Positions 12,187-60,384 of a stretch of DNA of 64,000 nucleotides are shown one piece after another. A model generated the notes under the pieces. The model made no database searches and was not told the origin of the DNA. It worked only from the letters and a program-made list of their open reading frames with translations. Position 1 is the first letter of the stretch. The number at the start of each line of letters is the position of its first letter. The position numbers and the translations under genes are program-made. The DNA lies in the IMG/VR virus record IMGVR_UViG_3300027798_006580; one strand, given 5' to 3'. Source of the DNA: a virus.

Positions 12187-12672
12187 ATGGCAACAAAAGC
12201 TCCTATGTTAGATATGTTTAATCGAGTACTTCCAGCTTTGGATACTCGCAACAAAAAACTCTACGAAAATCTCAGTGAAGAAGAACAGAAAGGGTTTAGT
12301 CCCTGGCTTGTTCAACGATATTTGAGCAGTGCCGAAAGTGCTAACAATGCTGTCATTGAACATTACTTGATTATGACCAATGACATTGTTAATGTCAACT
12401 TCAGTGAAGTCAAAGATCCTGAAATGACTTGGAAGTTAATGAGCATGGTGGGCATTGGTAAAAGTCTCAAGCATCCATACATTGCTCCAAGCGGCGGTAA
12501 GAGAAAAAAGAAAAATGCTTTTAGAGCCTGGCTACGTGAACAGTATCCGCACTTAGATGATCAAGAATTAGATATCTGGATCAGTAACTTAGATAAAAAA
12601 TCCGCCAAGGATATGTTGGAACAATACCATGTTAAAGACAAAGATGTTATCTCTAGTGCAAATGACTTATAA
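12187..12672 (+). CDS. Putative clamp-loader small subunit, T4 gp62-like
   Basis: F.PWLVQRYLS motif resembles gp62 N-terminus; size and replication context fit. Confidence 0.5.
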   Translation: MATKAPMLDMFNRVLPALDTRNKKLYENLSEEEQKGFSPWLVQRYLSSAESANNAVIEHYLIMTNDIVNVNFSEVKDPEMTWKLMSMVGIGKSLKHPYIAPSGGKRKKKNAFRAWLREQYPHLDDQELDIWISNLDKKSAKDMLEQYHVKDKDVISSANDL

Positions 12673-19229: not shown

Positions 19230-19298
19230 AATAGTGCTCCACTGTTAAAGTTATTTATCAGTTTGTTGGATAAATACTTTCAAGGATGGACTATAATA

Positions 19299-19559
19299 GT
19301 GCGTAAACATACACGATCTTTACTTGAAGAAATTACAAATATTGTACCGCAAAGAGACAGAGAAAGTTTTGTGGAAAACAAGGCCGTAAATGTCATCGCG
19401 AGTACTCGGTATCTTGTTGAATATATACAAGAAAACTTTAACCAAGAGCAAAGTGAAGATTTATTAAAACGTTTATTCAACAGCTTAAAAACTGGCGATG
19501 AAATGAAATTTCGCAGAGGAATTAAACAAATTAAAGAAGCAAATAATGGAAGAATTTGA
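19299..19559 (+). CDS. Hypothetical protein
   Basis: Probable GTG start; late block. Confidence 0.6.
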   Translation: MRKHTRSLLEEITNIVPQRDRESFVENKAVNVIASTRYLVEYIQENFNQEQSEDLLKRLFNSLKTGDEMKFRRGIKQIKEANNGRI

Positions 19560-20316
19560 ACATTTATCGGGCTGGGATCTACTAGTGGAAAGTAGACAGT
19601 ATCGCTCAAACACAACAGGTCTTAATTTAAGAAATGTCAGCGATTTTGCTTTTTTAGATTTAATTTCATTATTCATACTTCAAAATGAATACGAAACTGC
19701 ACCAGTATCAAAGAACTATGCAGATAAAACCATAGGATATAGAAACTTTTTACGTCCCAGACTCGCTGGAACAGACTTATATACCAGTTTGAATATACTG
19801 TCGAATCCGGACAGTGTTTTCAGCAAAAAGATACGTCAAAATCCAGAAGCTGATGCTTTGCTTAGGTCAAAGCTAAAGGTACATACTCCCACTGTGAAAC
19901 GTTATTTAGATTTATTAGCAGATGGAAATTTAAGAAAAGAAGATGCCGCAGTGCTACTATTGCGTTTAGAAAAACAATTAAACATAACAGATAGTAAATT
20001 AAAAAGTATTCGTAGATTGGCACAGGACTGGCCAGCCATCAATGACATGCAACGAGAATTAGTAGTTACACGTATGCTACAATATTATCGTAAGTTTGCG
20101 AAACGCAGTGAAATGGCAGTGTTCCTAGAAGACTTGGGTAAAACCAAAGGCTACAAGTTAAATGCTCCAGTAGATGCAGAACTTGCCAATCTGGGCTATG
20201 GACAAAAACCGGAGCCTGGTAAAAAAGGATGGCTGGCAACCCTGGCCCCAGCGGCTGGTTTAATAGCAGGATACAAGTTAGGCTATGCACTAACTGGCCC
20301 AAAAAACAAACAGTAG
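19546..20316 (+). CDS. Hypothetical late protein
   Basis: 256 aa with C-terminal hydrophobic helix. Confidence 0.65.
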   Translation: MEEFEHLSGWDLLVESRQYRSNTTGLNLRNVSDFAFLDLISLFILQNEYETAPVSKNYADKTIGYRNFLRPRLAGTDLYTSLNILSNPDSVFSKKIRQNPEADALLRSKLKVHTPTVKRYLDLLADGNLRKEDAAVLLLRLEKQLNITDSKLKSIRRLAQDWPAINDMQRELVVTRMLQYYRKFAKRSEMAVFLEDLGKTKGYKLNAPVDAELANLGYGQKPEPGKKGWLATLAPAAGLIAGYKLGYALTGPKNKQ

Positions 20317-20396
20317 ATAGTATAATATCTTAAAAAGAAGATAAATAAACTTAAGAAAACAAAGTTTTCGAAGAAACAAATTAGGAGAATTTTATT

Positions 20397-20633
20397 ATGG
20401 CAAATGCAGCCCCATTTACAGCGATCGGTCGCGACGTATTCATCAAGTCTTTTGCTAAGACAAACATTACACAATCAGAGTTAGATGCTTTGGTACAGAC
20501 AGTTCAGTTGACAAGTACAATCACAGCTATCGGTGCTTTCACAGCCGGTACAAGTGATGTTGTTAACATGATCATCGAAGGTGCAGACGTTTCAGCGGCT
20601 ACTGGTTACACAGTCGCTAACGTAGCATTCTAA
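20397..20633 (+). CDS. Small putative virion structural protein
   Basis: Ala/Thr-rich 78 aa, strong codon bias, AGGAG RBS, GATAAATA upstream, terminator downstream. Confidence 0.6.
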   Translation: MANAAPFTAIGRDVFIKSFAKTNITQSELDALVQTVQLTSTITAIGAFTAGTSDVVNMIIEGADVSAATGYTVANVAF

Positions 20634-20663
20634 ATCTTAATAATTAACTTTATTCGGGATGGG

Positions 20664-20691
20664 AAGCCGCAGTTTACTGCGGTTTTCTTTT
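20664..20691 (+). terminator. Rho-independent terminator
   Basis: AAGCCGCAG-TTTA-CTGCGGTTT followed by TCTTTT. Confidence 0.75.
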
Positions 20692-20732
20692 GACTGAAAT
20701 AAAAGGTTAAATACGTTAACAGGAGAATTAAC

Positions 20733-21179
20733 ATGGCACAGAGCACAAACAGAACAGGCGAAGTTGTTGGTGGCAACATTGAATTTTTTAGTTGCTACAC
20801 ATTGGTAGATATTACAGATACAGGGGTATATGATCCTAATGCTGGCAACTCATATGAACAAGCACAGAATTTAAATTCTTTACTACAAGCAATCAGTTTA
20901 GGTAGTCAACCTATATTATCCAGCGTGGAAAAAATTACAGCGGCAGATGTCACTGACTATGATTTTGGCACAGATTTTACAGGCAATCACAATATGTGGG
21001 TATTACGATTCGCCAGTGAACGAATCGGAGCCATATCAGTGTCATCTTTAGTTAGAGATATTGATGGCTTACCAGTATACGATGACTTAGATGAAACAGC
21101 TACGTTTGATAATAATGTATTTGAAACCGGCGCCGCCGATCAACTTAATATATACTTTATCCGTAACGATAACTTATAA
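20733..21179 (+). CDS. Putative virion structural protein
   Basis: 148 aa, TLVDIT.TG motif, late box and AGGAG RBS. Confidence 0.55.
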   Translation: MAQSTNRTGEVVGGNIEFFSCYTLVDITDTGVYDPNAGNSYEQAQNLNSLLQAISLGSQPILSSVEKITAADVTDYDFGTDFTGNHNMWVLRFASERIGAISVSSLVRDIDGLPVYDDLDETATFDNNVFETGAADQLNIYFIRNDNL

Positions 21180-21269
21180 TTTAGATAAATACATTACATA
21201 ATTAGGCACCAGTCCATTGGCACAAACTTAGGCATTTGAGATAAGAAGAACACATTTTATAAGGAGTTC

Positions 21270-21581
21270 GTGTTAATGGCAACCACAATAGAGAGACTAG
21301 GAATAGTCGAAACTAAGGTCGAGAATCTCAATGAGAAACTTGACGAGTTAAAAGTAGACGTAAAAGACCTGCACAATTGTCTAGATAAAACTAGAGATAC
21401 CATCGAAGAAAAATTAGAAGAGATGTATCAATCTAGTTGTGCCCAACATGCCGAAATGTCTAAAAAGATTTCTGCCATGGAACGGTTCAAAGACAAATGG
21501 ATGTATACATTTGGTGGCGGCATGATAGTGGTAAGTTGGGCCAGCGCACATGCAGATAGTATTATATCAATATTAAAATGA
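21270..21581 (+). CDS. Coiled-coil protein with C-terminal transmembrane helix (holin/hemolysin-like)
   Basis: Heptad pattern followed by WMYTFGGGMIVVSW. Confidence 0.5.
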   Translation: MLMATTIERLGIVETKVENLNEKLDELKVDVKDLHNCLDKTRDTIEEKLEEMYQSSCAQHAEMSKKISAMERFKDKWMYTFGGGMIVVSWASAHADSIISILK

Positions 21582-21883
21582 TGGAATTTGAAGTCATAGT
21601 CGAAGACACAGAAGAGACTTTAACAGAGGCTAAACGTGTTTGGGCCAAGCGTGGTAAGAAATTAAAACGTATGATTCGTTGCACCAGCGGCAAGAAAAAA
21701 GGCAGAACAGTTGCCAACGTCAGTGCTTGTAGTAAAGCGATAAATATGAAGAAGAGATTTATGATGAGGCGAATTAGAAAACGCTTCAATGCTAAAATCG
21801 TTAGAAAATCAAAGAGAACAAAAGCATTTAATCCTTTGAGTAAACGATTGAAGACAATGAATAAATCAACAAACGCAAGGTAA
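21578..21883 (+). CDS. Highly basic protein, possibly prohead core or DNA-binding
   Basis: Acidic N-terminus ..LTEA followed by a Lys/Arg-rich body. Confidence 0.6.
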   Translation: MMEFEVIVEDTEETLTEAKRVWAKRGKKLKRMIRCTSGKKKGRTVANVSACSKAINMKKRFMMRRIRKRFNAKIVRKSKRTKAFNPLSKRLKTMNKSTNAR

Positions 21884-21890
21884 CAAATAT

Positions 21891-22316
21891 ATGGCAGATG
21901 ATCGAAGTTTAACAGATATAATAAGATTCACAGATCCCAGCGGGGAAATCAGTGATTCTGAAATTGCCGGAATTTCTAATTCACTTAAATTTTCAGAAGT
22001 ATTGGATTTAATATCATCTGTGAGTAAAGATAACATGGATTCTGCTAGAAACATTTTAAGTAAGCACGATCCTCGATTCAGTGTTGCCACAGAATATGCT
22101 GGCGCACAAGGTGCCCAGACCAGCGGATTTAAACCAATCAAGCCTCAGGGCACAGTAGGTGCATTACCTGGCACAGCAAATAAACCAGTCAATCCCAACG
22201 GACCACAAGACAGCGACCAAGGTGATTTAGAAGCCATGGTCACAGACCCAATGAACAAGAATAAACCAGAAGTAAAACAGATTCAAAGTTTACTTCAAAG
22301 GCTACAGAACAGATGA
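21891..22316 (+). CDS. Hypothetical late protein
   Basis: 141-aa ORF in operon. Confidence 0.6.
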   Translation: MADDRSLTDIIRFTDPSGEISDSEIAGISNSLKFSEVLDLISSVSKDNMDSARNILSKHDPRFSVATEYAGAQGAQTSGFKPIKPQGTVGALPGTANKPVNPNGPQDSDQGDLEAMVTDPMNKNKPEVKQIQSLLQRLQNR

Positions 22317-22705
22317 GAATAAAAGATATTGTTTCCGAATCATATAAAGGATATGGTGGCGGCCATATGAAAGATTTTGGTACAGTAAAACGTGGTATAG
22401 ATCAATCTATACCCAATGCTAGAATTGAACCAGAAGTTCGGAATACAGATACGTACATGCAACTGCGCTATGGTATTGCATTGGCCGCGGCCGCTTCCCA
22501 CAGTGCTGACGACTTTGAACAAGAAAGCGCCTGGGCAGAAAACTTGGGTATGGTCGGTTACAGTGATGCTGATGTAGAAATAATGGATGCCGCCGATAAG
22601 CTAATGGGTGTCAAAAGTATTAAGTTAAGTGGAAAAAGTAAAGAACGCGATGACACTGGAACTACAAGTGCTGTAGCCAGTGGATGGAAGAAGTTTGCAA
22701 AATGA
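22313..22705 (+). CDS. Putative internal head protein
   Basis: N-terminal MRIKDIVSE motif. Confidence 0.55.
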   Translation: MRIKDIVSESYKGYGGGHMKDFGTVKRGIDQSIPNARIEPEVRNTDTYMQLRYGIALAAAASHSADDFEQESAWAENLGMVGYSDADVEIMDAADKLMGVKSIKLSGKSKERDDTGTTSAVASGWKKFAK

Positions 22706-22917
22706 AAATAGTTGAACTAGCATCCGGCATCAAAACAATGATTACCAACGAGCAACAAGAACTCGTTAAAGAAATTAAGGAATCTACTCAAATTTCAAGA
22801 GAAGATTTAGATGAACGAAAGCAAAAACTAGCAGAACAAATGACTAGTCTTGGATTATTAGATAGAATATACGATGAAGAAAAACAAGCAATTATCTACA
22901 AACTATTCAGTAGATAA
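22702..22917 (+). CDS. Hypothetical protein
   Basis: MKIVEL start, ATGA-coupled. Confidence 0.6.
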   Translation: MKIVELASGIKTMITNEQQELVKEIKESTQISREDLDERKQKLAEQMTSLGLLDRIYDEEKQAIIYKLFSR

Positions 22918-23365
22918 AAAAGGCGCAGATAGACTATCGTCTAAAGTGGCAGCAATGCTGGATGATGCTATACCTAAAAATATATTAGGTATGATGGTCA
23001 CTATGAAAGAACAGGAACGCAGTCTAGTGTTCTATGACAGATTCAGTTTGAATGTACATAAAAAGAACGACTATTCTATCATTGACTTATATACCAAAGA
23101 AGCAGTCTACGACAATATTGCGCTGTTTTCCAGTGCATTGCATATCATATTTTTCTTACACAAAGGGGTACATAGATCTGCCCCACAAGAAGATGTCATA
23201 TACGAACTAGATCAAGAATACTTTCGATGTTTAGAAAACATCAAATTTTACAGACATAAGATGAACTCGGTTAACTCTGAATTAATCCCACTTTTTGCAG
23301 ACAGATTAACTGATGCCAAGGTGAGATTAGAAGAAACAAAAACCAAATTATCTAAAACATATTGA
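22874..23365 (+). CDS. Hypothetical protein (start uncertain)
   Basis: 163-aa ORF filling the operon gap. Confidence 0.55.
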   Translation: MKKNKQLSTNYSVDKKGADRLSSKVAAMLDDAIPKNILGMMVTMKEQERSLVFYDRFSLNVHKKNDYSIIDLYTKEAVYDNIALFSSALHIIFFLHKGVHRSAPQEDVIYELDQEYFRCLENIKFYRHKMNSVNSELIPLFADRLTDAKVRLEETKTKLSKTY

Positions 23366-23389
23366 TAAATAATCTAAAGGATACCTATT

Positions 23390-24070
23390 ATGAATACCTC
23401 TGAAATTTTTAACCCTACACAACGCAAACAGCGTGTGGTAGAAAACTTCTTGAATAGCCACTATGGCTTGAAATTGGCTGCTCACGGCGATTCAGTCAAA
23501 GTACAGTCACTGATCAGTAAATTGGTTCAGGAAAATCACCAATTTGCCAGTGCAAAAGTTGGCTTTCAAAACGATGCTACTTATGTTAAGAACACTATGA
23601 TCATCGAAGCATTACGTCACATTCTTAAAGAGATTGGTCCAATGCGCTCTACTCGTAGAATGAACGAACAAAGCGGTGAAGATTTAGCTCAAGCTGAATT
23701 GATCCTTGTTGCTCAGAACATGGTCGATGATCTGCAAAAGATGGCAGAAGATGTTGCTCAAATGCAAACAGACGAACTAATGCCATTAGAAGAAAAAATG
23801 AAAACAACATTTGGTCAAGAGCAAGGTACTGCGTTTGGCCAAGCCGCTGATCAATCATTCGGCACATTGTTGGATGCAGTCAAGGCTGCTAAAGACGCTT
23901 TAAGTAATGCAGTTGCAGTTCTTAAAGGTGAAAGCCCAATGGGCGGCATGGGCAATGACCTAAGCGCAGGCATGCCAGCTCCTGCATTGGAACCAACAGG
24001 CGATGAGTTTGGTATGGCCGATGCGGCAAGCGGTGAAGAAGAATTGCCAACTGGGCGCGAGTTGAAGTAA
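23390..24070 (+). CDS. Putative prohead core/scaffold-like protein
   Basis: Acidic helical protein with MNEQ..EDL.QAE.IL.A..MVD.LQKM.ED and C-terminal GRELK; late box and RBS. Confidence 0.5.
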   Translation: MNTSEIFNPTQRKQRVVENFLNSHYGLKLAAHGDSVKVQSLISKLVQENHQFASAKVGFQNDATYVKNTMIIEALRHILKEIGPMRSTRRMNEQSGEDLAQAELILVAQNMVDDLQKMAEDVAQMQTDELMPLEEKMKTTFGQEQGTAFGQAADQSFGTLLDAVKAAKDALSNAVAVLKGESPMGGMGNDLSAGMPAPALEPTGDEFGMADAASGEEELPTGRELK

Positions 24071-40225: not shown

Positions 40226-40471
40226 ATGAAAACAATTATTTTACTAACAGCAATTTTACTATCGGGGTGTAGTTCACTGAACGCAGTACTGTATAACAGT
40301 GCCAATGCTTGTTTAGAAGCACAGAAATCAATTAGTAAAGATTCTGCGATGACAGAAATTGCAAGATTAAATGCAATACAAGAAATAGCAAAAACTGCCA
40401 ACGACGAAACTAAAAGAACACTGTCGTCTCTAATAAATAATAAACGACAAACTGATATTATATGTAAATAA
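40226..40471 (+). CDS. Small lipoprotein
   Basis: Lipobox LLSGC. Confidence 0.65.
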   Translation: MKTIILLTAILLSGCSSLNAVLYNSANACLEAQKSISKDSAMTEIARLNAIQEIAKTANDETKRTLSSLINNKRQTDIICK

Positions 40472-40473
40472 TA

Positions 40474-40815
40474 GTTAAGACTGTATGAAGTAGATTGAAA
40501 CGTGTCCTGGACGGGGGTGCGAGTCCCCCCAGGTCCACCATAAGGAGACTGTATGGATCCTGAAGTAAAATACCAATATGTATGTGGAATATTGAGTGTG
40601 ATTATTTTGGTATTTTTTATATTCTTTTTATGATGGGCCTGACATAGATTCGACAGGGCAAAGAGTAATGAAATGGACAGTCCGGCAATGTAGAAGCCGT
40701 TAGGATTGGGGCGACCCGGTCGAAGAAGCAAAACAAAGTAAACGCAAACGACTCACAGTTCGCATTAGCTGCCTAAACTCAGCTTAGGGTAAGACATACC
40801 TCGTAACAGAAAATC
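40474..40815 (+). ncRNA. ssrA: Circularly permuted two-piece tmRNA: acceptor piece ~40474-40540, coding piece 40635-~40815
   Basis: T-arm and CAGGTCC-A-CCA come first; downstream GGGCCTG-ACATAGATTCGAC pairs with it, giving a G3:U70 Ala determinant; tag ORF 40744-40776 encodes ANDSQFALAA*. Confidence 0.92.
40553..40633 (+). CDS. 26-aa single-TM peptide inside the tmRNA intervening segment
   Basis: TAAGGAG at 40541 then MDPEVKYQYVCGILSVIILVFFIFFL*. Confidence 0.6.
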   Translation: MDPEVKYQYVCGILSVIILVFFIFFL

Positions 40816-40845
40816 AGAAACCCGCTTCGGCGGGTTTTCTTTTCT
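40815..40845 (+). terminator. Terminator after tmRNA
   Basis: AAACCCGC-TTCG-GCGGGTTT followed by a T-rich tail. Confidence 0.85.
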
Positions 40846-40894
40846 AATTAATTATAAAAATTTTAAAGAGTTCTTCACTGAGGCAGATGTATTG

Positions 40895-44516: not shown

Positions 44517-45044
44517 ATGGATTTAAAAAATATAATTAGAACAGTGGATAATTTTCCTAAACCAGGAATACAATTTTTGGATGTTACCAGCATACTAGAA
44601 AATCCAGAAGCATTTAGACGCACAGTAAATTGGCTGATAAAATTGACAGCGGCACATCAAATAGAAAGTATAGTTGCCATAGACGCTCGTGGATTTATCT
44701 GGGGCGGAGCAGTAGCCAGCGAATTACGAATTCCATTATACCTTGCAAGAAAACCAGGTAAACTTCCTGGCAATATAATTACTCAAACATATGATACGGA
44801 ATATAGCACGGCCAGTTTAAGTATGTTAAAGGATGTGTATATTCAAGGGCCAGTACTGGTTATTGATGATATTCTTGCCACAGGTGGCACATTGAATGCT
44901 GTGGGTAAACTCTTAGAACTTGGCTGGAAAATTAAACCCATTGATCAAATTCATGCTGTAATTGCTAATTTGGATTTCTTACCAGGTAAAAAGTTCTTAA
45001 CTGATAACGGTTATACGGTTGAACATTTACTTAACTTTGATTAA
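44517..45044 (+). CDS. apt: Adenine phosphoribosyltransferase
   Basis: FPKPGI.F.D, ARGF, RKPGKLP, VIDDILATGGT. Confidence 0.92.
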   Translation: MDLKNIIRTVDNFPKPGIQFLDVTSILENPEAFRRTVNWLIKLTAAHQIESIVAIDARGFIWGGAVASELRIPLYLARKPGKLPGNIITQTYDTEYSTASLSMLKDVYIQGPVLVIDDILATGGTLNAVGKLLELGWKIKPIDQIHAVIANLDFLPGKKFLTDNGYTVEHLLNFD

Positions 45045-45882
45045 CCCTGATTAGTTGTCTATCATTATGTGACCTGCACCAAAGCATAGGACAAGAAAAT
45101 GGTCCATCTGGAGCTGTCCATCCTTCTTCGAATACATTACCAGACGATCGACCCCCACATTCACTGGCAACAACAAACCCTTTATGGTCAATACTTAATA
45201 TGTCTATACCAGCATAACATAATTTGCCAGTATAGCTAGGACTATCATCCTTTGGCGGTTCATTTAATGGAATATACGGAGGTGCCACGTACGGCGGATC
45301 TTCATAGTCTTCGGGCAATCCTCTAATTAAATTTTTATCTTTTTTACTGTATTTAGGCCACATTTTACCGTCAGCAGTTTTTAATGTTTGGGGTTCAGCA
45401 TCCACATCTTGACTAATTAATTCCGCTACTTTATCTTTTCCTTCTAGGATTTTACCAGGAAGTAAAGGTATTATTACTTTTATTATTTTCTTATTTTCTT
45501 TGCAGTGATCTATAATAAAATCTAACACACTAACGTTTTGCCAACTGTGATGTGTAAGCCTAAATCGATCTACATAATTGATAATTTCCATGACATTAAA
45601 CCAACTATCTCCACCTGACGTATCTAGCCTAACCTGTGATGGTTTGCTTTTTATTTTTTGTAACAGTAGATTTAAGTTTGGAAAATTTAAAGGTTCACCA
45701 CCACCCAACATCCATTTAATTCTATCACCGTGTGGGTATCTTGTTTGTTGTAATTGTTCGACAACATTCAAGTATTGATCTAAAGTTTTATCTAAACTAC
45801 CTTTGCTCCATTTTCCGTGACAGTATTCACATCCATACTCACAATAACTATTGAGTTTCCAGTTTATTTCTAGTGTTTTCAT
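45031..45882 (-). CDS. Radical SAM protein with a C-terminal Cys-rich (SPASM/twitch-like) region
   Basis: CEYGCEYC, GGEP, C-terminal C.AG...C...C...C. Confidence 0.85.
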   Translation of the reverse strand: MKTLEINWKLNSYCEYGCEYCHGKWSKGSLDKTLDQYLNVVEQLQQTRYPHGDRIKWMLGGGEPLNFPNLNLLLQKIKSKPSQVRLDTSGGDSWFNVMEIINYVDRFRLTHHSWQNVSVLDFIIDHCKENKKIIKVIIPLLPGKILEGKDKVAELISQDVDAEPQTLKTADGKMWPKYSKKDKNLIRGLPEDYEDPPYVAPPYIPLNEPPKDDSPSYTGKLCYAGIDILSIDHKGFVVASECGGRSSGNVFEEGWTAPDGPFSCPMLWCRSHNDRQLIRVNQS

Positions 45883-45995
45883 ACACTTATTTAACCGTTA
45901 CCGTTGACACATGTGGTTTAAACAGTGTATAATACATATTGATAACATTAAAGCAGTAGTAAGAACTTTTCTTTTATCCACTAAATATAAGCTAC

Positions 45996-47378
45996 ATGAC
46001 ATTTTTATTATTTTTTACAGCATTTATACTTAGCGGAATTGCGGCTTACTACAGCGTTATCGGTATTATTGCGATCTTTTCAGCGGCAGTAATTCCTGTG
46101 GCCATTATGGCCAGTAGCCTTGAAGTGGCTAAACTAGTTGTGGCTAGTTGGCTATATCGTTATTGGAAACATATTCCAATTTTGATGAAAACTTATTTTA
46201 CTTTATCATTAATAGTCCTTATGCTGATTACCAGCATGGGCATTTTTGGTTTCTTAAGTAAAGCACACAGCGATCAAAGTTTGGTCAGTGGCGACGTAAC
46301 TGCAAAAATTGCAATCTACGATGAAAAAATTAAAACAGCGAAAGAGAACATAGATGCAAACCGCAAGGCTCTTAAACAAATGGATGAGGCAGTGGACCAA
46401 GTCATGGGTCGCAGTACAGACGAAAAAGGTGCCGATAAGGCAGTGGCTCTACGTAGGGTACAACAAAAGGAACGTGGACGTCTCATTGCTGAAATCGAAA
46501 CCTACCAGAAAACAGTTGGCGTACTTGCTGAACAGCGAGCGCCTATTGCCGCCGAAGTTAGAAAAGTCGAAGCTGAAGTAGGCCCTATCAAATATATTGC
46601 GGCATTCATCTACGGAGATGATCCTGATGAAAATACGTTAGAGCGTAGTGTTCGTTGGTTGATTGTTTTATTGATCTGTGTGTTTGATCCATTGGCAGTA
46701 TTAATGCTTATAGCCGCAAACTTAACACAGATTAAATCCAAAGAGTGGCGCAAACAAAAAATAGAACCTGCCTACGAAAAAGACGATGGACCTCTAACCG
46801 ATGAACAAATCAATCAGGTTAAAGAATCTGCCAGCAATGATTTACCCGCAGGCGAATTGATCTCTAAAGATGAATTATTCCCAGAAAAATCGATGCAGGA
46901 TACACATCCTTACTTATACAAGCCGTTTGTTCATTTTAGAGATACCACACCCATAGTAGCTAAAAAAATAATAGAAGAGCCAATACCAACAATAGAGGAA
47001 ATTTCTCATGATGATATGGAACCAAATAAAGATACAACTAACGAAGTTGAGCTGCCAGTGGTTATTGAAACACCAGACAGAACACCAGAAGCTGATAAAC
47101 AAGATGCTAGTTCCGGCTTTACTCCCAATCCAGCAGTGGAAACAATGGGAATAGAAGCCTCAGTTAAAAAACCTCGGGCCTCCAAAAAAAAAGTTGACGT
47201 AGAACAGGTCAATGAAGATAAATCTAATAGTGTCAGTGTAAAGAATCAAGTTAACTCAATGATTGAAAATAATGACACCAATGGATTAGAATCTATATAT
47301 AAACAAATAGTAAAAGAGCTAGCAACAAAAAACCGCAGTAAAAGTACACACTGGGGACCTTTGAAAACTAAAAAATGA
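45996..47378 (+). CDS. Multi-TM coiled-coil membrane protein
   Basis: N-terminal TMs, long coiled coil, VFDPLAV..L, acidic tail. Confidence 0.7.
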   Translation: MTFLLFFTAFILSGIAAYYSVIGIIAIFSAAVIPVAIMASSLEVAKLVVASWLYRYWKHIPILMKTYFTLSLIVLMLITSMGIFGFLSKAHSDQSLVSGDVTAKIAIYDEKIKTAKENIDANRKALKQMDEAVDQVMGRSTDEKGADKAVALRRVQQKERGRLIAEIETYQKTVGVLAEQRAPIAAEVRKVEAEVGPIKYIAAFIYGDDPDENTLERSVRWLIVLLICVFDPLAVLMLIAANLTQIKSKEWRKQKIEPAYEKDDGPLTDEQINQVKESASNDLPAGELISKDELFPEKSMQDTHPYLYKPFVHFRDTTPIVAKKIIEEPIPTIEEISHDDMEPNKDTTNEVELPVVIETPDRTPEADKQDASSGFTPNPAVETMGIEASVKKPRASKKKVDVEQVNEDKSNSVSVKNQVNSMIENNDTNGLESIYKQIVKELATKNRSKSTHWGPLKTKK

Positions 47379-47803
47379 CAGACGAAACACAACATTATTA
47401 CATTACTCCGCCTACTTTATTTTTACCTCCTGCGGGACTTAGAGTATCATTAATTGGTGTCGACGAAGAGTGGATTGACAATATGAGTGACGAACTAGAA
47501 GATACTTTGCCCAGTATTCCTATGACGTTTTATCATTTAGATACCAAAACATCGGATCAATGGCAATGGCAGTTTCATATGATGGATCACAGCAATCTTA
47601 TTGTGGTTAATGTCGCACGTAGCGTTACCATTGATTTGTTATTATCTTTTTTACACATGGGTGACAATAAAATTTGGTTCTTTGTCAACCCCGAAGAAGT
47701 AGACAAAAATATTATAATACTGTTAAATACTATTAATGCAAATGTATTTTCTAGTTCAGATGAGTTTCATAGTATGTTAACAGCGTTTATTGGTAATGCC
47801 TAA
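47375..47803 (+). CDS. Hypothetical protein
   Basis: ITPP motif; operon packing. Confidence 0.6.
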
Positions 47804-49028
47804 TCAACCATTAATGAAATGCAGTTTCTGTGAAAAATCGCAGAACGAAGTAAAAAAACTTGTTGCTGGCGCCACTGGTTACATCTGCGATGAATGCATT
47901 GTATTGTGCAACGAAGTCATCAAAGATGATTTAATCAAGTCGTCTGCCAAAGATAATAAACTTCCTACTCCGCGAGAAATATTCGAACATCTTGATCAGT
48001 ATGTTATTGGACAAGAACTTCCCAAGTTAACACTGAGCGTGGCAGTATATAATCACTACAAGCGATTGTTTAACAAAAGCGATGTGGAGATTGAAAAAAG
48101 TAATGTACTGCTAATCGGTCCAACTGGTAGTGGTAAAACATTATTAGCAAAGAGTATTGCTAGATTTCTCGATGTGCCTTTTGCTATTACAGATGCTACA
48201 AGTTTAACTGAAGCAGGTTATGTCGGCGAAGATGTAGAAAACGTTATTCATAAATTATATCAGGCCGCAGATCAAAACATCGAACGTTGTGAACGGGGTA
48301 TTATCTACATTGACGAAATAGATAAAAAAGGACGTAAGAGTGAAGGTACCAGTATTACTCGTGATGTCAGTGGCGAAGGCGTTCAACAAGCATTGTTAAA
48401 GATCATTGAAGGCACAGAATGTCGTGTGCCCAGCGGCGGCGGCAGAAAACACCCAGGTGGCGATACATTAACTATCAACACTAAAAATATTTTGTTTATT
48501 CTGGGTGGTGCATTTGTAGGCTTAGACGAAATTATCAACAAACGTGTCAATACAAAATCTACCATGGGCTTTGCAGGAAATCCTGTGAAAGAAAAAACAT
48601 CGTTAGTAGGTACTACATCCAGTGATGTTATCAAATGGGGCATGATTCCAGAACTAGTGGGACGTATGCCTCAGATTGCTGTATTAGAAGAACTTACAGA
48701 AGAACAACTAGTGAGAGCAATGACCGAACCAAAGAACAACTTGGTCAGTCAATATCAAAGTTTATTCAAAATGGACAATGTCGAATTGTCCATCGATGAT
48801 CGAGCGGCCATGGCTATTGCCGCTAAATGCACTGAAATGAAATTAGGAGCACGTGGTCTACGTGCAGAACTAGAAAGTATACTGCTTAAAACGCAGTTTG
48901 TATTACCTGACTTGGCAGCAGAGAATGTCACGAAAGTTACAATAACAGAGGAAACAGTAACACATGGTAAAGAACCACTATTAATATATGGCAAACGAAA
49001 GACAAAACGAGAACAGAATTCTCAGTAA
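47796..49028 (+). CDS. clpX: ClpX ATPase
   Basis: Zn domain [44 protein letters not shown]; MGF at the IGF-loop position. Confidence 0.95.
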
Positions 49029-49518
49029 TCGCGAAATAAGAAGTCGCGATGTTCGTCTAATCAACGAAGATGGAAGTAACGGAGGTGTTGTGCCGTTCTT
49101 CACAGCATTGAACCTAGCACAGAATCAAGAACTTGATTTGATTCAAATCAATGGTGCGACTAATCCTCCAGTTTGCAAAATAGGTGACTTAGGTAAGTAC
49201 AAATACGAAGCGCAAAAGAAACAACACGATCAAGATAAAAAGAATCGTGAAAATCGTGTAGATATTAAAGAGGTGCAATTACGCCCGGCCATTGATATAC
49301 ATGATTTGGATATTAAAGTAAATAAGATCAAGGAATGGATTGCCGACGGAGATAAAGTCAAAGTTGTAATTCGTTTCCGTGGTAGAGAAATGGCTAACCA
49401 AGCAGTTGGTTTTAAATTAATCGAACACATAATAGCAACAGTACCGAGTGCTAAAGTTGAAGGCCGTAGCGAAATGCAGGGCAATAGACTTACTGCTATA
49501 ATTAGTCAAGCAAAGTGA
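48988..49518 (+). CDS. infC: Translation initiation factor IF-3
   Basis: N..I...VRLI, LDL....PPVCKI.D..KYKY, KEVQLRP.I..HD, GDKVKV..RFRGRE. Confidence 0.92.
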
Positions 49519-49525
49519 GATAAAC

Positions 49526-49762
49526 ATGGCAAGAAAAGATGGCCCATTAATGGGCAGTAAAGTTATTGTACAACACGATAACTGGGAAAAAGCATTACGC
49601 ACCTTTAAGAAAAAGATTCTCGAAAGCGGTAAACTAATTGAACTTAAAGAAAAAGAGTTCTACGAAAAGCCCAGTATGACAAAACGTAAAACTAAAAATC
49701 AACAAACTCGTCGGGCACAAAAGAAACGCGAAGCAGATTCATTACCTAAAAAACTTTATTAA
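49526..49762 (+). CDS. rpsU: Ribosomal protein bS21
   Basis: EKALR.FKKK, E.YEKPS..R. Confidence 0.85.
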   Translation: MARKDGPLMGSKVIVQHDNWEKALRTFKKKILESGKLIELKEKEFYEKPSMTKRKTKNQQTRRAQKKREADSLPKKLY

Positions 49763-49763
49763 A

Positions 49764-50132
49764 ATGAACGAAGATACTATTACTATTGATCTAAGCACTA
49801 TTGATTTAAGTGGTACTGAACCAATAGAATTTTCGTGGAACGAAAACAATATGAATGTTGCCATGCAAGCCAGTTCAATGTCAGGACCAAATACAGTTAC
49901 ATTAGGTAGCGGAGTTAATATTACAACCGCTAGTCTTGCTGCCAGCGGCAGTTATACCATTTCCTCACCATATGATGATATGGAACAGCGTTTAGCGAGA
50001 TTGGAAAAGATCATAGCCGAGGAAGATGAAGTTCGTAGAACTCATCCCGCTGTACAAATGGCCTATGATGAATATCGATTGTTATACATTTTGGCAAAGA
50101 AGAATGCTGGTGATTGCTTGACAGAAGACTAA
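49764..50132 (+). CDS. Hypothetical protein
   Basis: C-terminal HPAV..AY..Y motif. Confidence 0.6.
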   Translation: MNEDTITIDLSTIDLSGTEPIEFSWNENNMNVAMQASSMSGPNTVTLGSGVNITTASLAASGSYTISSPYDDMEQRLARLEKIIAEEDEVRRTHPAVQMAYDEYRLLYILAKKNAGDCLTED

Positions 50133-50162
50133 TGTTCTTGTATAATAAAAGATAAATAATAT

Positions 50163-50237
50163 TGTACAGCGCCAAGAGGGTTGTACAGTTAGGGCAATAG
50201 CCCAAAACGTTCTTGCTTATTAAAGGAGAAAATTATG
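50163..50237 (+). promoter_or_regulatory. ROSE-like RNA thermometer in the hsp20 leader
   Basis: Two hairpins then TTCTTGCT-TATTAA-AGGAGAA, with a bulged G opposite the SD. Confidence 0.75.
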
Positions 50238-50675
50238 AACGCATTAACACGATTTGACACAACAGCTTTGAATCAATTGAACAGAGCACTTATAGGATTT
50301 GACCGCTTGTTTACAGAACGAGCTTACACTACAAATCCAACTTACCCTCCATACAACGTAATTAAGAAAACTGAAAACGACTACGAAATTGAAGTAGCAG
50401 TTGCAGGTTTTACTCTTGATGAAATTGATGTAGAAGTCAATCAAAACCAACTTGTTATCCGTGGCCACAGCAAACATGAAGCTGACACCGATGTTGAATA
50501 CTTACATAGAGGTCTTGCTTACAGAGACTTTGAAAAAGTATTAACATTAGCAGAGCACATGCAAGTGGGCGAAGCTAGTATCAAGGATGGTGTTCTTAGA
50601 GTGGAAATAACTAGGATTATACCAGAGGCATTAAAACCTCGTAAAATCAACGTTATTAGCATCGACAAGAACTAA
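50235..50675 (+). CDS. Small heat-shock protein, Hsp20/IbpA-like
   Basis: YPPYNV, IE.AVAGF, YLHRG.A.R.F, DG.L, PE..KPRKI. Confidence 0.93.
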   Translation: MNALTRFDTTALNQLNRALIGFDRLFTERAYTTNPTYPPYNVIKKTENDYEIEVAVAGFTLDEIDVEVNQNQLVIRGHSKHEADTDVEYLHRGLAYRDFEKVLTLAEHMQVGEASIKDGVLRVEITRIIPEALKPRKINVISIDKN

Positions 50676-50730
50676 AGCGTAAGATGGGGGACATTTTGTC
50701 CCCCTGATAAATATCTATATAAGGAAAAAC

Positions 50731-51033
50731 ATGACTTTAATGGCAACAGAAACTTCTCAATCAACAAAAATTGTTATCACAAAACCAAATATGTATAAAG
50801 TGATTTTTAACAATGATAATGCAACTCCATCCGACTTTGTCAAAGAAGTTTTAAAAGCAATTTTCCATCATGACGATGCAAGGGCAGAAAGCATTACTAC
50901 AGAAATTCACGAACAAGGCAAAGGCATTGCCGGCGTTTATACTTTTGAAGTAGCTGAACAAAAGCATCAAGAAGCCACGTATGTAGCCCGTACAAACGGG
51001 CACCCGCTGAACATTAATTTAGAGTCAGAATAA
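50731..51033 (+). CDS. clpS: ClpS adaptor
   Basis: P.MYKVI..ND..TP.DFV, IH..G.G.AG.Y..EVAE.K, HPL. Confidence 0.9.
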   Translation: MTLMATETSQSTKIVITKPNMYKVIFNNDNATPSDFVKEVLKAIFHHDDARAESITTEIHEQGKGIAGVYTFEVAEQKHQEATYVARTNGHPLNINLESE

Positions 51034-51308
51034 TGGATCCCAAAACAAAAGAAGCATTGGACATTCTCCAAGAAGAATGTGCCGAGGTCATCCAAGCCGT
51101 GAGTAAAATTAGCCGCTTTGGATTAGATAACTTAAAACCCGGTAAACCTAAAACTAATAAAGAACACTTAGAAGAAGAACTGGGTGACTTATTGGCCATG
51201 GTAGATATCTTGCTAGAAAAAGGCATTGTTTCTAAAGTATCTTTAGATTCTGCTAATAAAGCTAAAATAGAAAAACTTAAAAAGTGGAGTAATATCTTTA
51301 CAGATTAG
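51033..51308 (+). CDS. MazG-like NTP pyrophosphohydrolase
   Basis: EECAEV.Q, LEEELGDL. Confidence 0.8.
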   Translation: MDPKTKEALDILQEECAEVIQAVSKISRFGLDNLKPGKPKTNKEHLEEELGDLLAMVDILLEKGIVSKVSLDSANKAKIEKLKKWSNIFTD

Positions 51309-51850: not shown

Positions 51851-52276
51851 ATGCCTAAGAAGGACATTACCAGAACCAAATTATTTAAAATGGTTCAAAG
51901 TTTTGACGAACATGATGCTAAATTTAGACCTACAATTTCCGATTGCAGGGAAGCATTTAGAAACATTAATCGCAATGTCTTTAACGGCGAACTCAAAATG
52001 CCCAGTTTTAGATTAGTTTATACAAAAGCATTTTGGGGTGAATGCCAAGGTGTTTTGGAAGATCAAACTCAAGTTAAAATGAAAATTAATAAGAGTTTTC
52101 TAAGTAAACGATTATTCATTAATACCATGGCGCACGAAATGGTACATCAGTGGGAATGGCTAGTTAATGAGAATATGACACATGGCCCGCAATTCTTTTT
52201 GTGGCGTGATCAATTAGCCAACTATAATATCACATTAAGTCGATGTTATAGAATGAAACATTATAGATTAGATTAA
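51851..52276 (+). CDS. SprT-like Zn metalloprotease
   Basis: N...F.G.L, HEMVH, HG..F..W. Confidence 0.8.
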   Translation: MPKKDITRTKLFKMVQSFDEHDAKFRPTISDCREAFRNINRNVFNGELKMPSFRLVYTKAFWGECQGVLEDQTQVKMKINKSFLSKRLFINTMAHEMVHQWEWLVNENMTHGPQFFLWRDQLANYNITLSRCYRMKHYRLD

Positions 52277-52361: not shown

Positions 52362-52439
52362 GCAACGGTGGCAGAGCGGCCCAATGCAACGGATTGCAAA
52401 TCCGTAAAACCGGGGGTTCAAATCCCTCCCGTTGTTCCA
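52362..52439 (+). tRNA. tRNA-Cys(GCA)
   Basis: Acceptor GCAACGG/CCGTTGT, U73 and encoded CCA; anticodon arm ACGGA-TTGCAAA-TCCGT; TTCAAAT T-loop; TTGACA/TATAAT promoter at 52323-52351. Confidence 0.92.
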
Positions 52440-52482
52440 ATTTTAAATTGGCACAAATTGGTTTCTGTGTTATAATTAATAC

Positions 52483-52797
52483 ATGATGAAACGCAAAACA
52501 CGTACAGACAGAAACCATGCAGTATATGTTATCACTAACACTGTGACAGCAGAACAGTATGTTGGTGTTACAGTTTGCAGTGGTAACGTTAAAAAAGCAC
52601 TTAAAGTTCGTATGCAAAAACACGTTCGTCGTGCGCTGACAGAGAACAAAGATTGGGCACTATGCAAGAGCATTCGTGCTCATGGCGTAGATGCTTTTAC
52701 ATATGGTTTGTTAGAGACACTTCGCGGCAAGGCACCGGCTCATGTACGCGAACGTGAATTGACCAAGATCCACAATCCAGTTCTTAACACGCTCTAA
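52483..52797 (+). CDS. GIY-YIG nuclease-like protein
   Basis: VY.ITN.....YVG.T, R...H, G...F, E......P.LN. Confidence 0.75.
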   Translation: MMKRKTRTDRNHAVYVITNTVTAEQYVGVTVCSGNVKKALKVRMQKHVRRALTENKDWALCKSIRAHGVDAFTYGLLETLRGKAPAHVRERELTKIHNPVLNTL

Positions 52798-52798
52798 A

Positions 52799-54190
52799 TT
52801 AAGGCGGGCCGTGTCTTGCTAGATAATTAAGAGGTTGCTCTAACATTATATCAGGGCAATGTCTTGCCAAGATGTCATGTACTTCTGGCAAGACCTTTCG
52901 CCAGTTGGTGCCCCTGATTTTATCTAGTTTGTCCATCACTGTTACAAATTCTTGATATTTTGTTGAATTTTCTTGGTCTATATATTTTTCTAAGAATTTA
53001 ATAATTGCTTTATACCACTTAGTGCGATTTTCGGTATGATGCATTAAACTTTTATAATGTTCGATAATTTCTTCTTTGGCCGGCCTTGGCAGAGATCGCA
53101 AATCTAACCAAGGCGGACCTTCTAAAAATCTAAATTCTGCAGGGACGTCCAGTTCTTCGGCAACTTCGACTATTCGTTCTATAGAATATATAGACGCGAT
53201 TCCTATGCAACATGAGAGATAATGTATATTCAGGCCATTTTCTTTAATAGTTTTTATATTTTTAACAATATTATTATAATTTCCCGGAAAACGAATAAGA
53301 TTGTATCGTTCTTCGATGTCGTCGAGACTAACACAAAAGTCAATTTTCTTAAAATGTTTAAATTTTTCAATAATTTTATTATTGATCACCGTTAAATTTG
53401 TATCGTAACGGAGTGTGATATTTTTTGCAAATCCTCTGTCTATTAGTATAGTCAGTATTTTATTCATAGCAGGAGAAATCAACGGCTCGCCACCGGAAAA
53501 ATAAATGTATCTCAAGTCGGGTGCAATCTTATCAAAACGTTCCCACCAAATATCACTTTCCCACCATTTCGAATAATCTAAAATCTCTCGACCTTTGGTA
53601 TCTGTGGTCATCCTATAATCTTTGTCACCCCACTCAGTGCCCGCTGGCGTAACTGGGACATCGCCCCAAAGTTTACTCCAATCTTCATACCAAAGACTGC
53701 TGTATTCGGGACTGCACATTATACATTTTTGATTGCATAAATTGCTCAATCGAAGACCTAAATTTACAACCTTGGCAGTCGAAGTACCATCTGGCAATGT
53801 ATATTGATCGGCCTGATTCCAACGGACATATTCTGGAATTATTTGAGTCATGTGCCTATTGACTCGTTGTCTTTTACTCTTGCCCCATTTTTTAACATCT
53901 TCGTTGTCCCATTCATTAAGGCCTTTAGTGCTATGCTCCGAGTCATAACAATTACGGCATCTTTTTACTTGAATATTTTCTTTAAGGTGTAATCGATGAT
54001 TTTTATGAGTTACACTATTAATAGCCTCTTCTATCGAATGGGTCATGACATTCATTACATTGCCATTCTCATCATGCGCCATTCCATAATCTTTATTATA
54101 ATTTGCTAGGCAACATATTTTATAGTCACCGAGTGTATTGATTTCTATTTGGCTCCACAACTCGCCACAAAAACTTTCTAAATTAAACAT
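52799..54190 (-). CDS. Radical SAM protein with an N-terminal twitch/SPASM-like domain
   Basis: N-terminal C...G...CC...CRNCY..E; CNQKCIMC; FSGGEP; Y.TN. Confidence 0.85.
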   Translation of the reverse strand: MFNLESFCGELWSQIEINTLGDYKICCLANYNKDYGMAHDENGNVMNVMTHSIEEAINSVTHKNHRLHLKENIQVKRCRNCYDSEHSTKGLNEWDNEDVKKWGKSKRQRVNRHMTQIIPEYVRWNQADQYTLPDGTSTAKVVNLGLRLSNLCNQKCIMCSPEYSSLWYEDWSKLWGDVPVTPAGTEWGDKDYRMTTDTKGREILDYSKWWESDIWWERFDKIAPDLRYIYFSGGEPLISPAMNKILTILIDRGFAKNITLRYDTNLTVINNKIIEKFKHFKKIDFCVSLDDIEERYNLIRFPGNYNNIVKNIKTIKENGLNIHYLSCCIGIASIYSIERIVEVAEELDVPAEFRFLEGPPWLDLRSLPRPAKEEIIEHYKSLMHHTENRTKWYKAIIKFLEKYIDQENSTKYQEFVTVMDKLDKIRGTNWRKVLPEVHDILARHCPDIMLEQPLNYLARHGPP

Positions 54191-54466: not shown

Positions 54467-54525
54467 TTGACACAAATTAGTTTTGATGTTATAATACAAT
54501 ACATAGTTTAACAAAACAGGAGTTT
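54464..54525 (+). repeat. Early promoter/RBS repeat
   Basis: TAATTGACACAAATT..TATAATACAATACATAG..AACAAAACAGGAGTTT. Confidence 0.85.
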
Positions 54526-59439: not shown

Positions 59440-59624
59440 CTGCAATGAAAATTAAAGGGCATGGCCCAGCAGTTGCCGCCGCCACTTGGCTAAAAAACAA
59501 AGGATGGCACTACACAATGAAGTTATCTAATAATCGTCCATTCAGTGCAATCTACGACATAAGTATATCAAACAGAGAACAAGCGATGATATTTAAATTA
59601 ACCTTTGGAGCCGAAATTGTTTAA
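59436..59624 (+). CDS. Small protein, F-x-L family
   Basis: ISNREQAMIFKLTFG. Confidence 0.55.
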   Translation: MTAMKIKGHGPAVAAATWLKNKGWHYTMKLSNNRPFSAIYDISISNREQAMIFKLTFGAEIV

Positions 59625-60384
59625 ACGAATTATATTAACATTTTGTTTGCTATTTGCAAACAGCGTATATGCCAACAGCTACGGGCTCTACGACTTTGAC
59701 AACGTTCGATATGAGCACAGCAGAAATACCACAGACGTCCGCAGTATTGCCAGCATAACAAAACTATTCACAGCTTACGCAGTTGTAATGAGTTTAGTAG
59801 ATTTAGATGAAAAAGTCAAAGTACAGGGGAAATCTTCTGGCAGATTTGCTCGTGGCTCTTATCTACAACGCAGTGAATTGATGCGGGCCATGTTAATGAG
59901 CAGTGATAATTTAGCCGCAGAAACATTGGCTCACGCCCACCCCGGAGGTTATGACAAGTTTATTGCAGACATCAATTGGCATCTCGGACTCAACGGGTTT
60001 AAAGAAACTAAAATTGTAGATCCCACAGGCTTACTGGCAGGCAATGTCAGCACAGTGGATGAACTAAAAGAGTTTTTGTTTATATTACGCAGGATAGATA
60101 TCATTAGATATTATAGCAGTGACAAAATATATTCGGTTAAATATCAACCACCAAAGAGTAAACGTACAATAACTATTCAATTAAGGAATACTAATCCACA
60201 GATTTTTACCTATGACAGTATTGTACTGACTAAAACAGGATTTACCAACGCCGCTGGCCGCTGTTTGGCCATGCTAGTAGAAAAGAATGGTGTGCTGTAT
60301 GCCATGATCACATTGGGTAACAAAGATGTCAGACAGCGCACCGGTGTCATCAACGAAATGTTCAACGTACATGTACATGACTGA
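59605..60384 (+). CDS. D-Ala-D-Ala carboxy/endopeptidase (peptidase S11, PBP7-like)
   Basis: Signal peptide; ASITK (SxxK), SDN (SxN), KTGFT..AG.C. Confidence 0.88.
   Translation: MEPKLFKRIILTFCLLFANSVYANSYGLYDFDNVRYEHSRNTTDVRSIASITKLFTAYAVVMSLVDLDEKVKVQGKSSGRFARGSYLQRSELMRAMLMSSDNLAAETLAHAHPGGYDKFIADINWHLGLNGFKETKIVDPTGLLAGNVSTVDELKEFLFILRRIDIIRYYSSDKIYSVKYQPPKSKRTITIQLRNTNPQIFTYDSIVLTKTGFTNAAGRCLAMLVEKNGVLYAMITLGNKDVRQRTGVINEMFNVHVHD

Follow-up and report, generated by a model that had tools for sequence, protein, structure and literature searches.

Huge phages are known to carry genes for IF1, IF3, S21 and transfer-messenger RNA (tmRNA), for which an "interception of host translation" has been proposed (Al-Shayeb et al. 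2020, PMC7162821). ClpS, ClpX, ClpP, Hsp20 and IF3 belong to the known genes of jumbo phages, and phage ClpS has already been proposed to feed targets to the host ClpAP (Iyer et al. 2021, PMC7824862). Phage Atu_ph07 encodes a ClpA and a ClpB of its own; its description lists seven Clp proteins and mentions no cluster (Attai et al. 2018, PMC6102473). A survey of 900 phage genomes encountered Hsp20 at most 10 genes away from bS21 in 127 of them, and Clp families in about 50 (Chen et al. 2022, PMC9723584). The S21 of pelagimyophages has been reported in no cluster (Zaragoza-Solas et al. 2020, PMC7029224), and the bS21 of the Pelagibacter phage HTVC008M enters ribosomes (Mizuno et al. 2019, PMC6375957). 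Here, we describe a 64,000-nucleotide stretch of a freshwater T4-like phage, from the IMG/VR virus record IMGVR_UViG_3300027798_006580 (the whole stretch being called "the window" hereafter), in which the genes of ClpX, IF3, bS21, Hsp20, ClpS and a MazG-like protein stand together at positions 47796-51308.

Phage ribosomal and initiation proteins are often cited as a sign of ribosome reprogramming by viruses. Each gene of the block is already known from phages, and the block is no new kind of system. The analysis shows that bS21, IF3, ClpX, Hsp20 and ClpS form a modular neighbourhood of fixed order in many aquatic phages, and that this neighbourhood, formerly unnoticed, also occurs in three cultured phages, PA5oct, Atu_ph07 and Phosso, with the hosts Pseudomonas aeruginosa, Agrobacterium tumefaciens and Sinorhizobium meliloti. 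In the literature, no paper was found that describes the ordered block, the PA5oct cluster included. The reading favoured here, to which we give a probability of about 55%, is that of an old, vertically inherited, modular accessory block of a large aquatic T4-like phage group, which would be neither a recent capture from a host nor a single cassette.

The gene block and its conserved order

Genes of the window were called from the listing of its open reading frames (ORFs) combined with Pfam. Seven genes lie head to tail on the + strand, with neighbours that overlap or stand at most 102 nt apart:

47796-49028 (+), clpX: full-length AAA+ unfoldase (Pfam zf-C4_ClpX 1e-16, AAA_2 2e-28)
48988-49518 (+), infC-like gene of IF3 (Pfam IF3_N 9e-26 and IF3_C 3e-25, above cut-off)
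49526-49762 (+), rpsU, gene of bS21 (Pfam 2e-10, 40.8 bits for a cut-off of 27; PHROG 21469)
49764-50132 (+), orf122: Ser/Thr-rich variable N-terminal half and conserved helical C-terminus; occupies the variable slot after bS21
50235-50675 (+), hsp20: small heat-shock protein (Pfam HSP20 5e-18, 65 bits; PHROG 432, 4e-39)
50731-51033 (+), clpS: N-degron adaptor for ClpA-type unfoldases (Pfam 1e-25)
51033-51308 (+), mazG-like gene: small single-domain nucleoside triphosphate pyrophosphohydrolase of 91 amino acids (Pfam 2e-7; PHROG 4856, 5e-24)

Two further genes lead into the block:

45996-47378 (+), orf460: membrane N-terminus followed by a long charged region
47375-47803 (+), orf142: predicted nucleoside 2-deoxyribosyltransferase/DNPH1-like fold; directly before clpX

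All the named proteins of the block carry intact family motifs. An earlier reading of the window, made from its letters alone (the sequence-only reading), had listed ClpX, IF3, bS21, Hsp20, ClpS and a MazG-like protein as contiguous, and the ORF listing and Pfam bear this list out; one ORF, orf122, was absent from it.

A ClpS profile retrieved more than 521 viral stretches, the best 80 of which were analysed with our own hidden Markov models (HMMs). Among these, 69 distinct ClpS loci were delineated, with Hsp20 directly upstream of ClpS in 62 of 67. Where at least 6 kb of upstream flank was available (49 loci), bS21 was found in 42, ClpX in 18 and IF3 in 17, in a constant order; bS21 is absent in locus L015. 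ClpX and IF3, where present, are always located between orf142 and bS21. They are optional genes at one fixed slot: loci with both, with ClpX alone, with IF3 alone and with neither are all found. About 60 distinct IMG/VR phage contigs share the order (orf460-orf142)-[ClpX]-[IF3]-bS21-(variable slot)-Hsp20-ClpS, and the grouping is therefore not due to chance. Its near-constant backbone in relatives is bS21...Hsp20-ClpS. About 12 close contigs keep the whole series orf460-orf142-ClpX-IF3-bS21-orf122-Hsp20-ClpS-MazG-SprT-orf104, with 40-97% protein identity, and MazG directly follows clpS in 11 of the 69 loci.

The left flank belongs to this backbone. Upstream of bS21, orf460 is found in most related loci. 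No left neighbour of clpX or bS21 is more constant than orf142 (about 50 loci), which directly precedes bS21 in relatives devoid of clpX and infC, and also stands before clpX in Phosso. The slot between bS21 and Hsp20, in turn, varies in content: it is filled by orf122 here, by other small ORFs elsewhere, and by DnaK in many contigs. A full-length DnaK (Hsp70, 865 bits) lies between bS21/MazG and Hsp20 in L103 (4489-6432), L100 (4492-6438) and 14 more loci. Further genes of the same theme are found at the same place, namely FtsH in PA5oct and the ribosome recycling factor (RRF) in Phosso.

The product of orf122 has no Pfam or PHROG match, and an HMM built from 11 homologues gave no match when applied to PA5oct, Atu_ph07, Phosso and HTVC008M. 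Its homologues are confined to the close freshwater clade. A role as conserved partner of bS21 was thus rejected, orf122 being a clade-specific filler of the variable slot.

ClpX and ClpP

The phage ClpX aligns with Escherichia coli ClpX over residues 6-404 (466 bits). The Walker A and B motifs, the GYVG pore-1 loop, the RKH loop and the sensor-2 GARGLR are aligned and identical to those of E. coli, and the zinc finger CxxC-N18-CxxC is aligned as well. At the position of the IGF-type loop that docks ClpP, the phage protein displays MGF, a predicted ClpP-docking loop. Within the phage ClpX clade, GYVG and the zinc finger are kept in 25 of 25 sequences and (I/M)GF in 24.

The sequence-only reading had noted that no clpP is found, and had proposed that the host ClpP is redirected. 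The first statement holds for the window, where tblastn detected no ClpP, and fails for the lineage: a true ClpP (209-264 bits, with Ser, His and Asp aligned) is encoded downstream of clpX in three of five related contigs (G001, G003 and G004), at a distance of 5-23 kb. The nearest record, G001 (IMG/VR, 111 kb), shares 88% DNA identity with the window over the block and is collinear with it up to its last base. Since the ClpP of G001 (209 bits) maps, by this collinearity, to about 4.8-5.4 kb beyond the end of the window, a ClpP is expected there in the present phage. PA5oct, Atu_ph07 and Phosso encode ClpP as well. With a ClpP of their own in all these phages, redirection of the host ClpP is unlikely, and the sequences of the relatives indicate that the phage most likely brings its own ClpXP. 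This corrects the picture of a hijacked host ClpP. ClpP was also considered as a head protease and rejected in this role: the relative G002 possesses a T4 gp21-type prohead protease, which makes ClpP unneeded for head maturation.

The best bacterial ClpX sequences are 53-58% identical to the phage protein and are scattered over Betaproteobacteria, Gammaproteobacteria and Firmicutes, so that host identification from ClpX gave none. In a ClpX tree, 25 phage and 78 bacterial sequences, the latter including Pseudomonas and three alphaproteobacterial sequences, are parted by a single branch with a Shimodaira-Hasegawa-like approximate likelihood ratio (SH-aLRT) support of 100. The same split was obtained in an earlier tree with 37 bacterial sequences. 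Such a split by one branch fits one old phage ClpX lineage rather than repeated capture from present hosts.

IF3 and bS21

IF3 is of full length: its residues 12-172, comprising both domains and the linker, align with IF3 chains of ribosome-bound structures in the PDB (E 5e-30). The gene shares its first 41 nt with the end of clpX and lacks a Shine-Dalgarno (SD) sequence. Its ATG is formed by the Tyr-Gly codons of clpX in the conserved ...LLIYGK end of ClpX, and 12 relatives preserve both this start codon and the N-terminal peptide, in agreement with the ATG start given by the sequence-only reading. An upstream AUU start is impossible because a TAA stands in frame two codons upstream, and with the start fixed at ATG the AUU-based autoregulation of bacterial infC cannot apply. 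A non-AUG autoregulatory start is thus absent from the phage IF3; it is a regulatory trait and no requirement for the identity of IF3. In Atu_ph07 and Phosso, the IF3 start is GTG.

The phage bS21 matches its family over the two-helix core and aligns with bS21 chains of solved ribosomes (E 2e-8), and it possesses about 10 extra residues at its N-terminus.

ClpS and its possible partner

In the alignment with E. coli ClpS, the present protein keeps the N-degron pocket (N34, D35, T38 and H66, E. coli numbering), as do at least 73 of 74 phage ClpS. It also keeps E79, E82 and K84, the residues that contact the ClpA N-domain in ClpS-ClpA structures; these are conserved in at least 71 of 74. The gate of the pocket is more diverse. 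Position 40 is Ser only in the present protein, Ala in its close relatives and Met in 58 of 74 phage ClpS, with M, A, S, I or V found across the set; D36 is replaced by Asn here, Asn being found in 28 of 74. In E. coli ClpS, Met40 limits the pocket to Leu, Phe, Tyr and Trp, and the M40A substitution widens this specificity. The Ser at the gate together with Asn36 may thus confer a wider N-degron range, while the adaptor fold is not in doubt.

Neither a ClpA N-domain nor SmpB was found in G001 and four other related contigs (11-65% complete), the window itself having been searched for neither. From the five contigs devoid of a ClpA N-domain, the partner of ClpS would be the host ClpA, and such a use of host ClpA by the phage adaptor is plausible.

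Three putative transcription units

The block does not correspond to a single cassette, as two perfect sigma70 promoters, a conserved hairpin and late-type motifs divide the stretch into what appear to be three transcription units, the promoters and late motifs being called as consensus matches:

45904-45933 (+), sigma70-type promoter TTGACA-18-TATAAT (12/12 matches), ahead of orf460
50118-50146 (+), perfect sigma70 promoter of hsp20, with its -35 box within the last codons of orf122
50151-50158 (+), GATAAATA: T4-late-type motif following the hsp20 sigma70 promoter
50163-50234 (+), 5' leader of hsp20, about 80 nt: structured, ROSE-like
50686-50704 (+), GC-rich hairpin GGGGGAC/GTCCCCC, then GATAAATA at 50706-50713, 17 nt before the clpS ATG

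The promoter at 45904-45933 is likely the early promoter of orf460-orf142-clpX-infC-rpsU-orf122. No comparable promoter lies inside this first unit, the genes of which overlap by 4, 8 and 41 nt or are separated by gaps of 7 and 1 nt. The second unit is hsp20, with its own sigma70 promoter, late-type motif and structured leader; in many relatives, TATAAATA itself is the -10 box before hsp20. Among relatives, substitutions in the stem of the hairpin after hsp20 come in pairs, and [GT]ATAAATA is retained across the whole freshwater clade. Hairpin and motif together likely separate the hsp20 unit from a clpS-mazG unit of late type.

GATAAATA looks like a phage late-promoter motif. It also occurs five times on the + strand within 4 kb (19269-23371), e.g., 19 nt before the ATG at 23390. 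Fifteen perfect (12/12) TTGACA-N17/18-TATAAT promoters are located on the + strand between positions 993 and 63300 of the window. Those at 4824, 5105 and 63300 share the initial transcribed sequence ACATACATAG, and ACAATACATAG follows the promoter at 54495.

Start types were also examined, the sequence-only reading having assumed a mix of leaderless and SD-led starts. This mix is real: an SD-like 4-mer precedes 24 of 70 large ORFs, and orf104 (GIY-YIG homing-endonuclease-like, PHROG 5123; 52448-52797, start 52483), located 1.2 kb downstream of the block, has a sigma70 -10 box ending exactly 6 nt before its ATG. As this spacing is the same in about 11 relatives, orf104 is a conserved leaderless gene. 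The mixed start types support the premise only, and not the claimed retuning of start-site choice. Other candidate leaderless starts lie at 12187, 16309 and 61305.

The structured leader of hsp20

A consensus fold of 17 leaders shows two covarying hairpins (I and II), followed by UUGCUU opposite the SD sequence AAGGAG, with a G-G mismatch. In an alignment of 66 sequences, 12 of 18 base pairs covary. The motif U(U/C)GCU-SD-AUG is found in 60 of 72 hsp20 leaders and in 19 of 2033 control ORFs; it also occurs in PA5oct (as UUGCG), Atu_ph07, HTVC008M and Phosso. The covariance model returned 68 matches in 857 kb, of which 51 stand before hsp20, 16 before dnaK and one before a small ORF adjoining hsp20. 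In relatives, [GT]ATAAATA and a leader with the same three parts as that of hsp20 stand ahead of dnaK.

Folding with the nearest-neighbour model gives the SD an unpaired probability of 0.35-0.48, versus 0.49-0.60 in controls, which amounts to modest masking; this model cannot score the non-canonical pairs of ROSE elements. Temperature-scan folding was not counted as support for heat sensing, the SD masking being weak and variable. A lower stem that also encloses the AUG was found in 32 of 56 leaders (control mean 21.8, maximum 30), which lends it moderate support.

ROSE-like thermometers possess 2-4 hairpins in the 5' untranslated region of a small heat-shock protein (sHsp) gene, and in the 3' hairpin U(U/C)GCU forms imperfect pairs with the SD; the motif U(U/C)GCU-SD-AUG is their hallmark (Krajewski et al. 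2013, PMC3669281). The phage leader resembles these proteobacterial elements by its multi-hairpin architecture before an sHsp gene, by the U(U/C)GCU-SD pairing of its last hairpin and by the imperfection of this pairing. In contrast, neither the whole region nor the leader alone matches ROSE or any other Rfam family at E up to 10, the phage leader is also found before phage dnaK, and it begins at a late-type phage promoter instead of a sigma32 one.

Other features of the block and its surroundings

Hsp20 comprises an alpha-crystallin domain and a C-terminal I-x-V motif (...KINVIS...). The MazG-like protein reaches 31.7 bits against Pfam MazG (cut-off 22) and carries EECAE and EEELGD, its predicted metal-binding motifs. 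It has no sequence match in the PDB, and its start codon shares bases with the stop codon of clpS (TAATG). For orf460, neither Pfam nor PHROG gave a match at threshold.

The orf142 protein, without sequence-family match, yields a confident AlphaFold model (predicted local distance difference test score, 85.6) that resembles nucleoside 2-deoxyribosyltransferases, DNPH1 and MilB, Foldseek matching it to 4mcj (E 6e-6, template-modelling score 0.73).

The sequence-only reading had also pointed to a tmRNA near the block. ARAGORN confirms it 7 kb upstream, as context outside the block:

40448-40867 (+), tmRNA with the tag ANDSQFALAA, which ends in LAA

Downstream of the block stands a SprT-like metallopeptidase gene (51851-52276), as in nearly all close relatives; the known peptidases of jumbo phages include SprT-like ones (PMC7824862). 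ARAGORN also reports a tRNA-Cys at 52362, and a D-Ala-D-Ala carboxypeptidase (Peptidase_S11) is encoded at 59605-60384. The flanks at 44517-45882 and 52799-54190 harbor a phosphoribosyltransferase (+), a radical-SAM protein (-, 45031-45882) and a radical-SAM/SPASM protein (-, 52799-54190), all unrelated to the block.

Possible function and rival explanations

As a working model, phage-made IF3 and bS21, two small exchangeable parts of the 30S initiation site, would act on host ribosomes, where they would keep, and perhaps bias, initiation after host gene expression fails. Translated from AUG, the phage IF3 would escape the start-codon feedback of bacterial infC. In parallel, a nearly self-sufficient quality-control set would operate. 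Substrates such as tmRNA-tagged (...LAA) proteins would be removed by the phage ClpX together with its ClpP, Hsp20 (DnaK elsewhere) would hold unfolded proteins under the control of its leader, and ClpS, probably made late, would steer host ClpA-ClpP to N-degron or aggregated proteins and away from others, thereby redirecting or restraining it.

Several points weigh against the block being read as an old inherited module. Descent alone can preserve gene order in T4-like genomes, and the backbone includes genes unlinked to translation or proteolysis, i.e., orf142, MazG and, in Atu_ph07 and Phosso, a thymidine kinase. The ClpP of the window's own genome is deduced from a relative, and the contigs searched for ClpA are only 11-65% complete. 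The ClpX tree stems from a quick search without a mixture model and displays long phage branches (2.1 for PA5oct), its 78 bacterial sequences being those most similar to the query. Promoters and late motifs were called by consensus match only. Finally, the window shows no enrichment of KATAAATA (13 found, 10.8 expected), and the term "late promoter" is thus drawn from position and conservation only.

The main rival is an order due to descent only, in which independent accessory genes of an early/hyperplastic T4-like region would be inherited as neighbours without joint function, each acting alone or being nearly neutral. The unrelated backbone genes (the orf142 protein with its nucleoside 2-deoxyribosyltransferase-like fold, thymidine kinase, MazG) speak for it, as do the three separate transcription units, the dispensability in some relatives of ClpX, IF3, MazG and bS21 (the latter absent in L015), the roughly 16 kb of other genes that separate members in Phosso, and the pelagimyophage study, which saw no cluster around S21 (PMC7029224). 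However, six of the seven named genes within 3.5 kb serve initiation or protein quality control while the genes on either side have no relation to the block, other genes of this theme are inserted at the same place elsewhere (dnaK, FtsH in PA5oct, RRF in Phosso), and Hsp20 and ClpS are adjacent in 62 of 67 loci. We regard neighbourhood by descent alone as possible but rather doubtful. In the sequence-only reading, IF3 and bS21 would retune the choice between leaderless and SD-led starts, and tmRNA, ClpX and ClpS would redirect the host ClpP and ClpA. The fixed ATG start of IF3, the conserved leaderless orf104 with SD-like motifs before only 24 of 70 large ORFs, and the conserved ClpA-contact residues of ClpS with no ClpA N-domain in the five related contigs are consistent with it. 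So is the finding, attributed to Tedin and colleagues in 1999, that excess IF3 disfavours leaderless initiation. The reading nevertheless appears unlikely, since the lineage has its own ClpP and recruitment of the host enzyme is unneeded, bS21, Hsp20 and ClpS persist in many relatives that lack IF3 or ClpX, and the module is found in phages of very different hosts.

The Clp parts could also serve phage development or counter-defence, ClpXP remodelling or destroying specific phage or host regulators (e.g., replication factors, assembly factors or defence proteins), and ClpS mainly inhibiting host ClpAP and so shielding phage proteins. In known systems, ClpXP acts on lambda O and MuA. A role of this kind has been proposed by the authors of the Atu_ph07 study (PMC6102473). 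The location of clpX next to topoisomerase genes in Atu_ph07 and Phosso, the late-type motif ahead of clpS, and the variation of the ClpS gate (M, A, S, I, V), as expected if the substrate range is under selection, fit such a role. On the other side, the analysis yielded no candidate substrate, ClpS is constantly accompanied by Hsp20 and often by DnaK, which points to folding stress, and the lineage has a gp21-type prohead protease. This explanation is judged very unlikely.

A more far-reaching version of the model would be a takeover programme. In such a programme, bS21 and the non-autoregulated IF3 would bias the 30S subunit in favour of the phage, the rise of IF3 would silence leaderless early genes such as orf104 and act as a timer, and a hybrid Clp machine (phage ClpXP, and phage ClpS on host ClpA) would clear failed translation products together with the leader-controlled Hsp20 or DnaK. 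Taken as a whole, this scenario is improbable. Since carriers of the block have been cultured on tractable hosts, the question can be addressed in PA5oct or Atu_ph07 instead of an uncultured lake phage.

Comparison with known systems

The cultured phages PA5oct, Atu_ph07 and Phosso are among the closest known counterparts of the block. PA5oct (EST35_0255 to EST35_0260, MK797984) shows the order ClpX-bS21-slot-Hsp20-ClpS on the same strand, with FtsH after ClpS, ClpP about 8 kb downstream, a ClpX on the phage side of the tree and an hsp20 leader with an anti-SD of the U(U/C)GC type. It differs from the window by lacking IF3, orf460 and orf142, by two slot ORFs including a QueD-like gene, by a ClpX devoid of RKH and by proteins only 29-52% identical, and is a 287-kb jumbo phage of a gammaproteobacterium. 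Atu_ph07 (gp2 ClpX, gp1 IF3, gp708 ClpS) and Phosso share the order ClpX-IF3-bS21-slot-Hsp20-(thymidine kinase)-ClpS, with ClpP elsewhere in the genome; unlike in the window, their IF3 starts with GTG behind a strong SD. The Atu_ph07 block, on the same strand and with two slot ORFs, spans the ends of the circular record, which begins with ClpX-IF3 and closes with the bS21 to ClpS part, whereas insertions stretch that of Phosso over 16 kb, with RRF nearby. The Atu_ph07 protein AUZ95452, annotated as "hypothetical", is a bS21 homologue (L024:9097-9348 (-), corresponding to MF403008 489096-489347). The block of this phage went unnoticed because it spans the record ends and because of this annotation. 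In HTVC008M, the resemblance consists of bS21-x-Hsp20, phage-encoded bS21 being a feature of large aquatic myoviruses.

The bS21 gene of Bacteroidetes phages is surrounded by late structural genes and has late expression (PMC9723584), whereas here it belongs to a putative sigma70-driven unit with ClpX and IF3. The surveys of huge and jumbo phages treat the genes singly (PMC7162821, PMC7824862); the fixed order, the optional ClpX/IF3 slot and the single phage ClpX clade are not described there.

Compared with the bacterial tmRNA-ClpXP, ClpS-ClpAP and IbpA-type systems, the phage block comprises the same families with their defining residues, and the tmRNA tag ends in the same LAA. In bacteria, however, these genes are scattered over clpP-clpX, clpS-clpA, ibpAB and infC operons, and infC is autoregulated via a non-AUG start. 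The phage arrangement is distinguished by the coupling of ClpX to IF3 and bS21, by that of ClpS to Hsp20, and by an IF3 translated from AUG.

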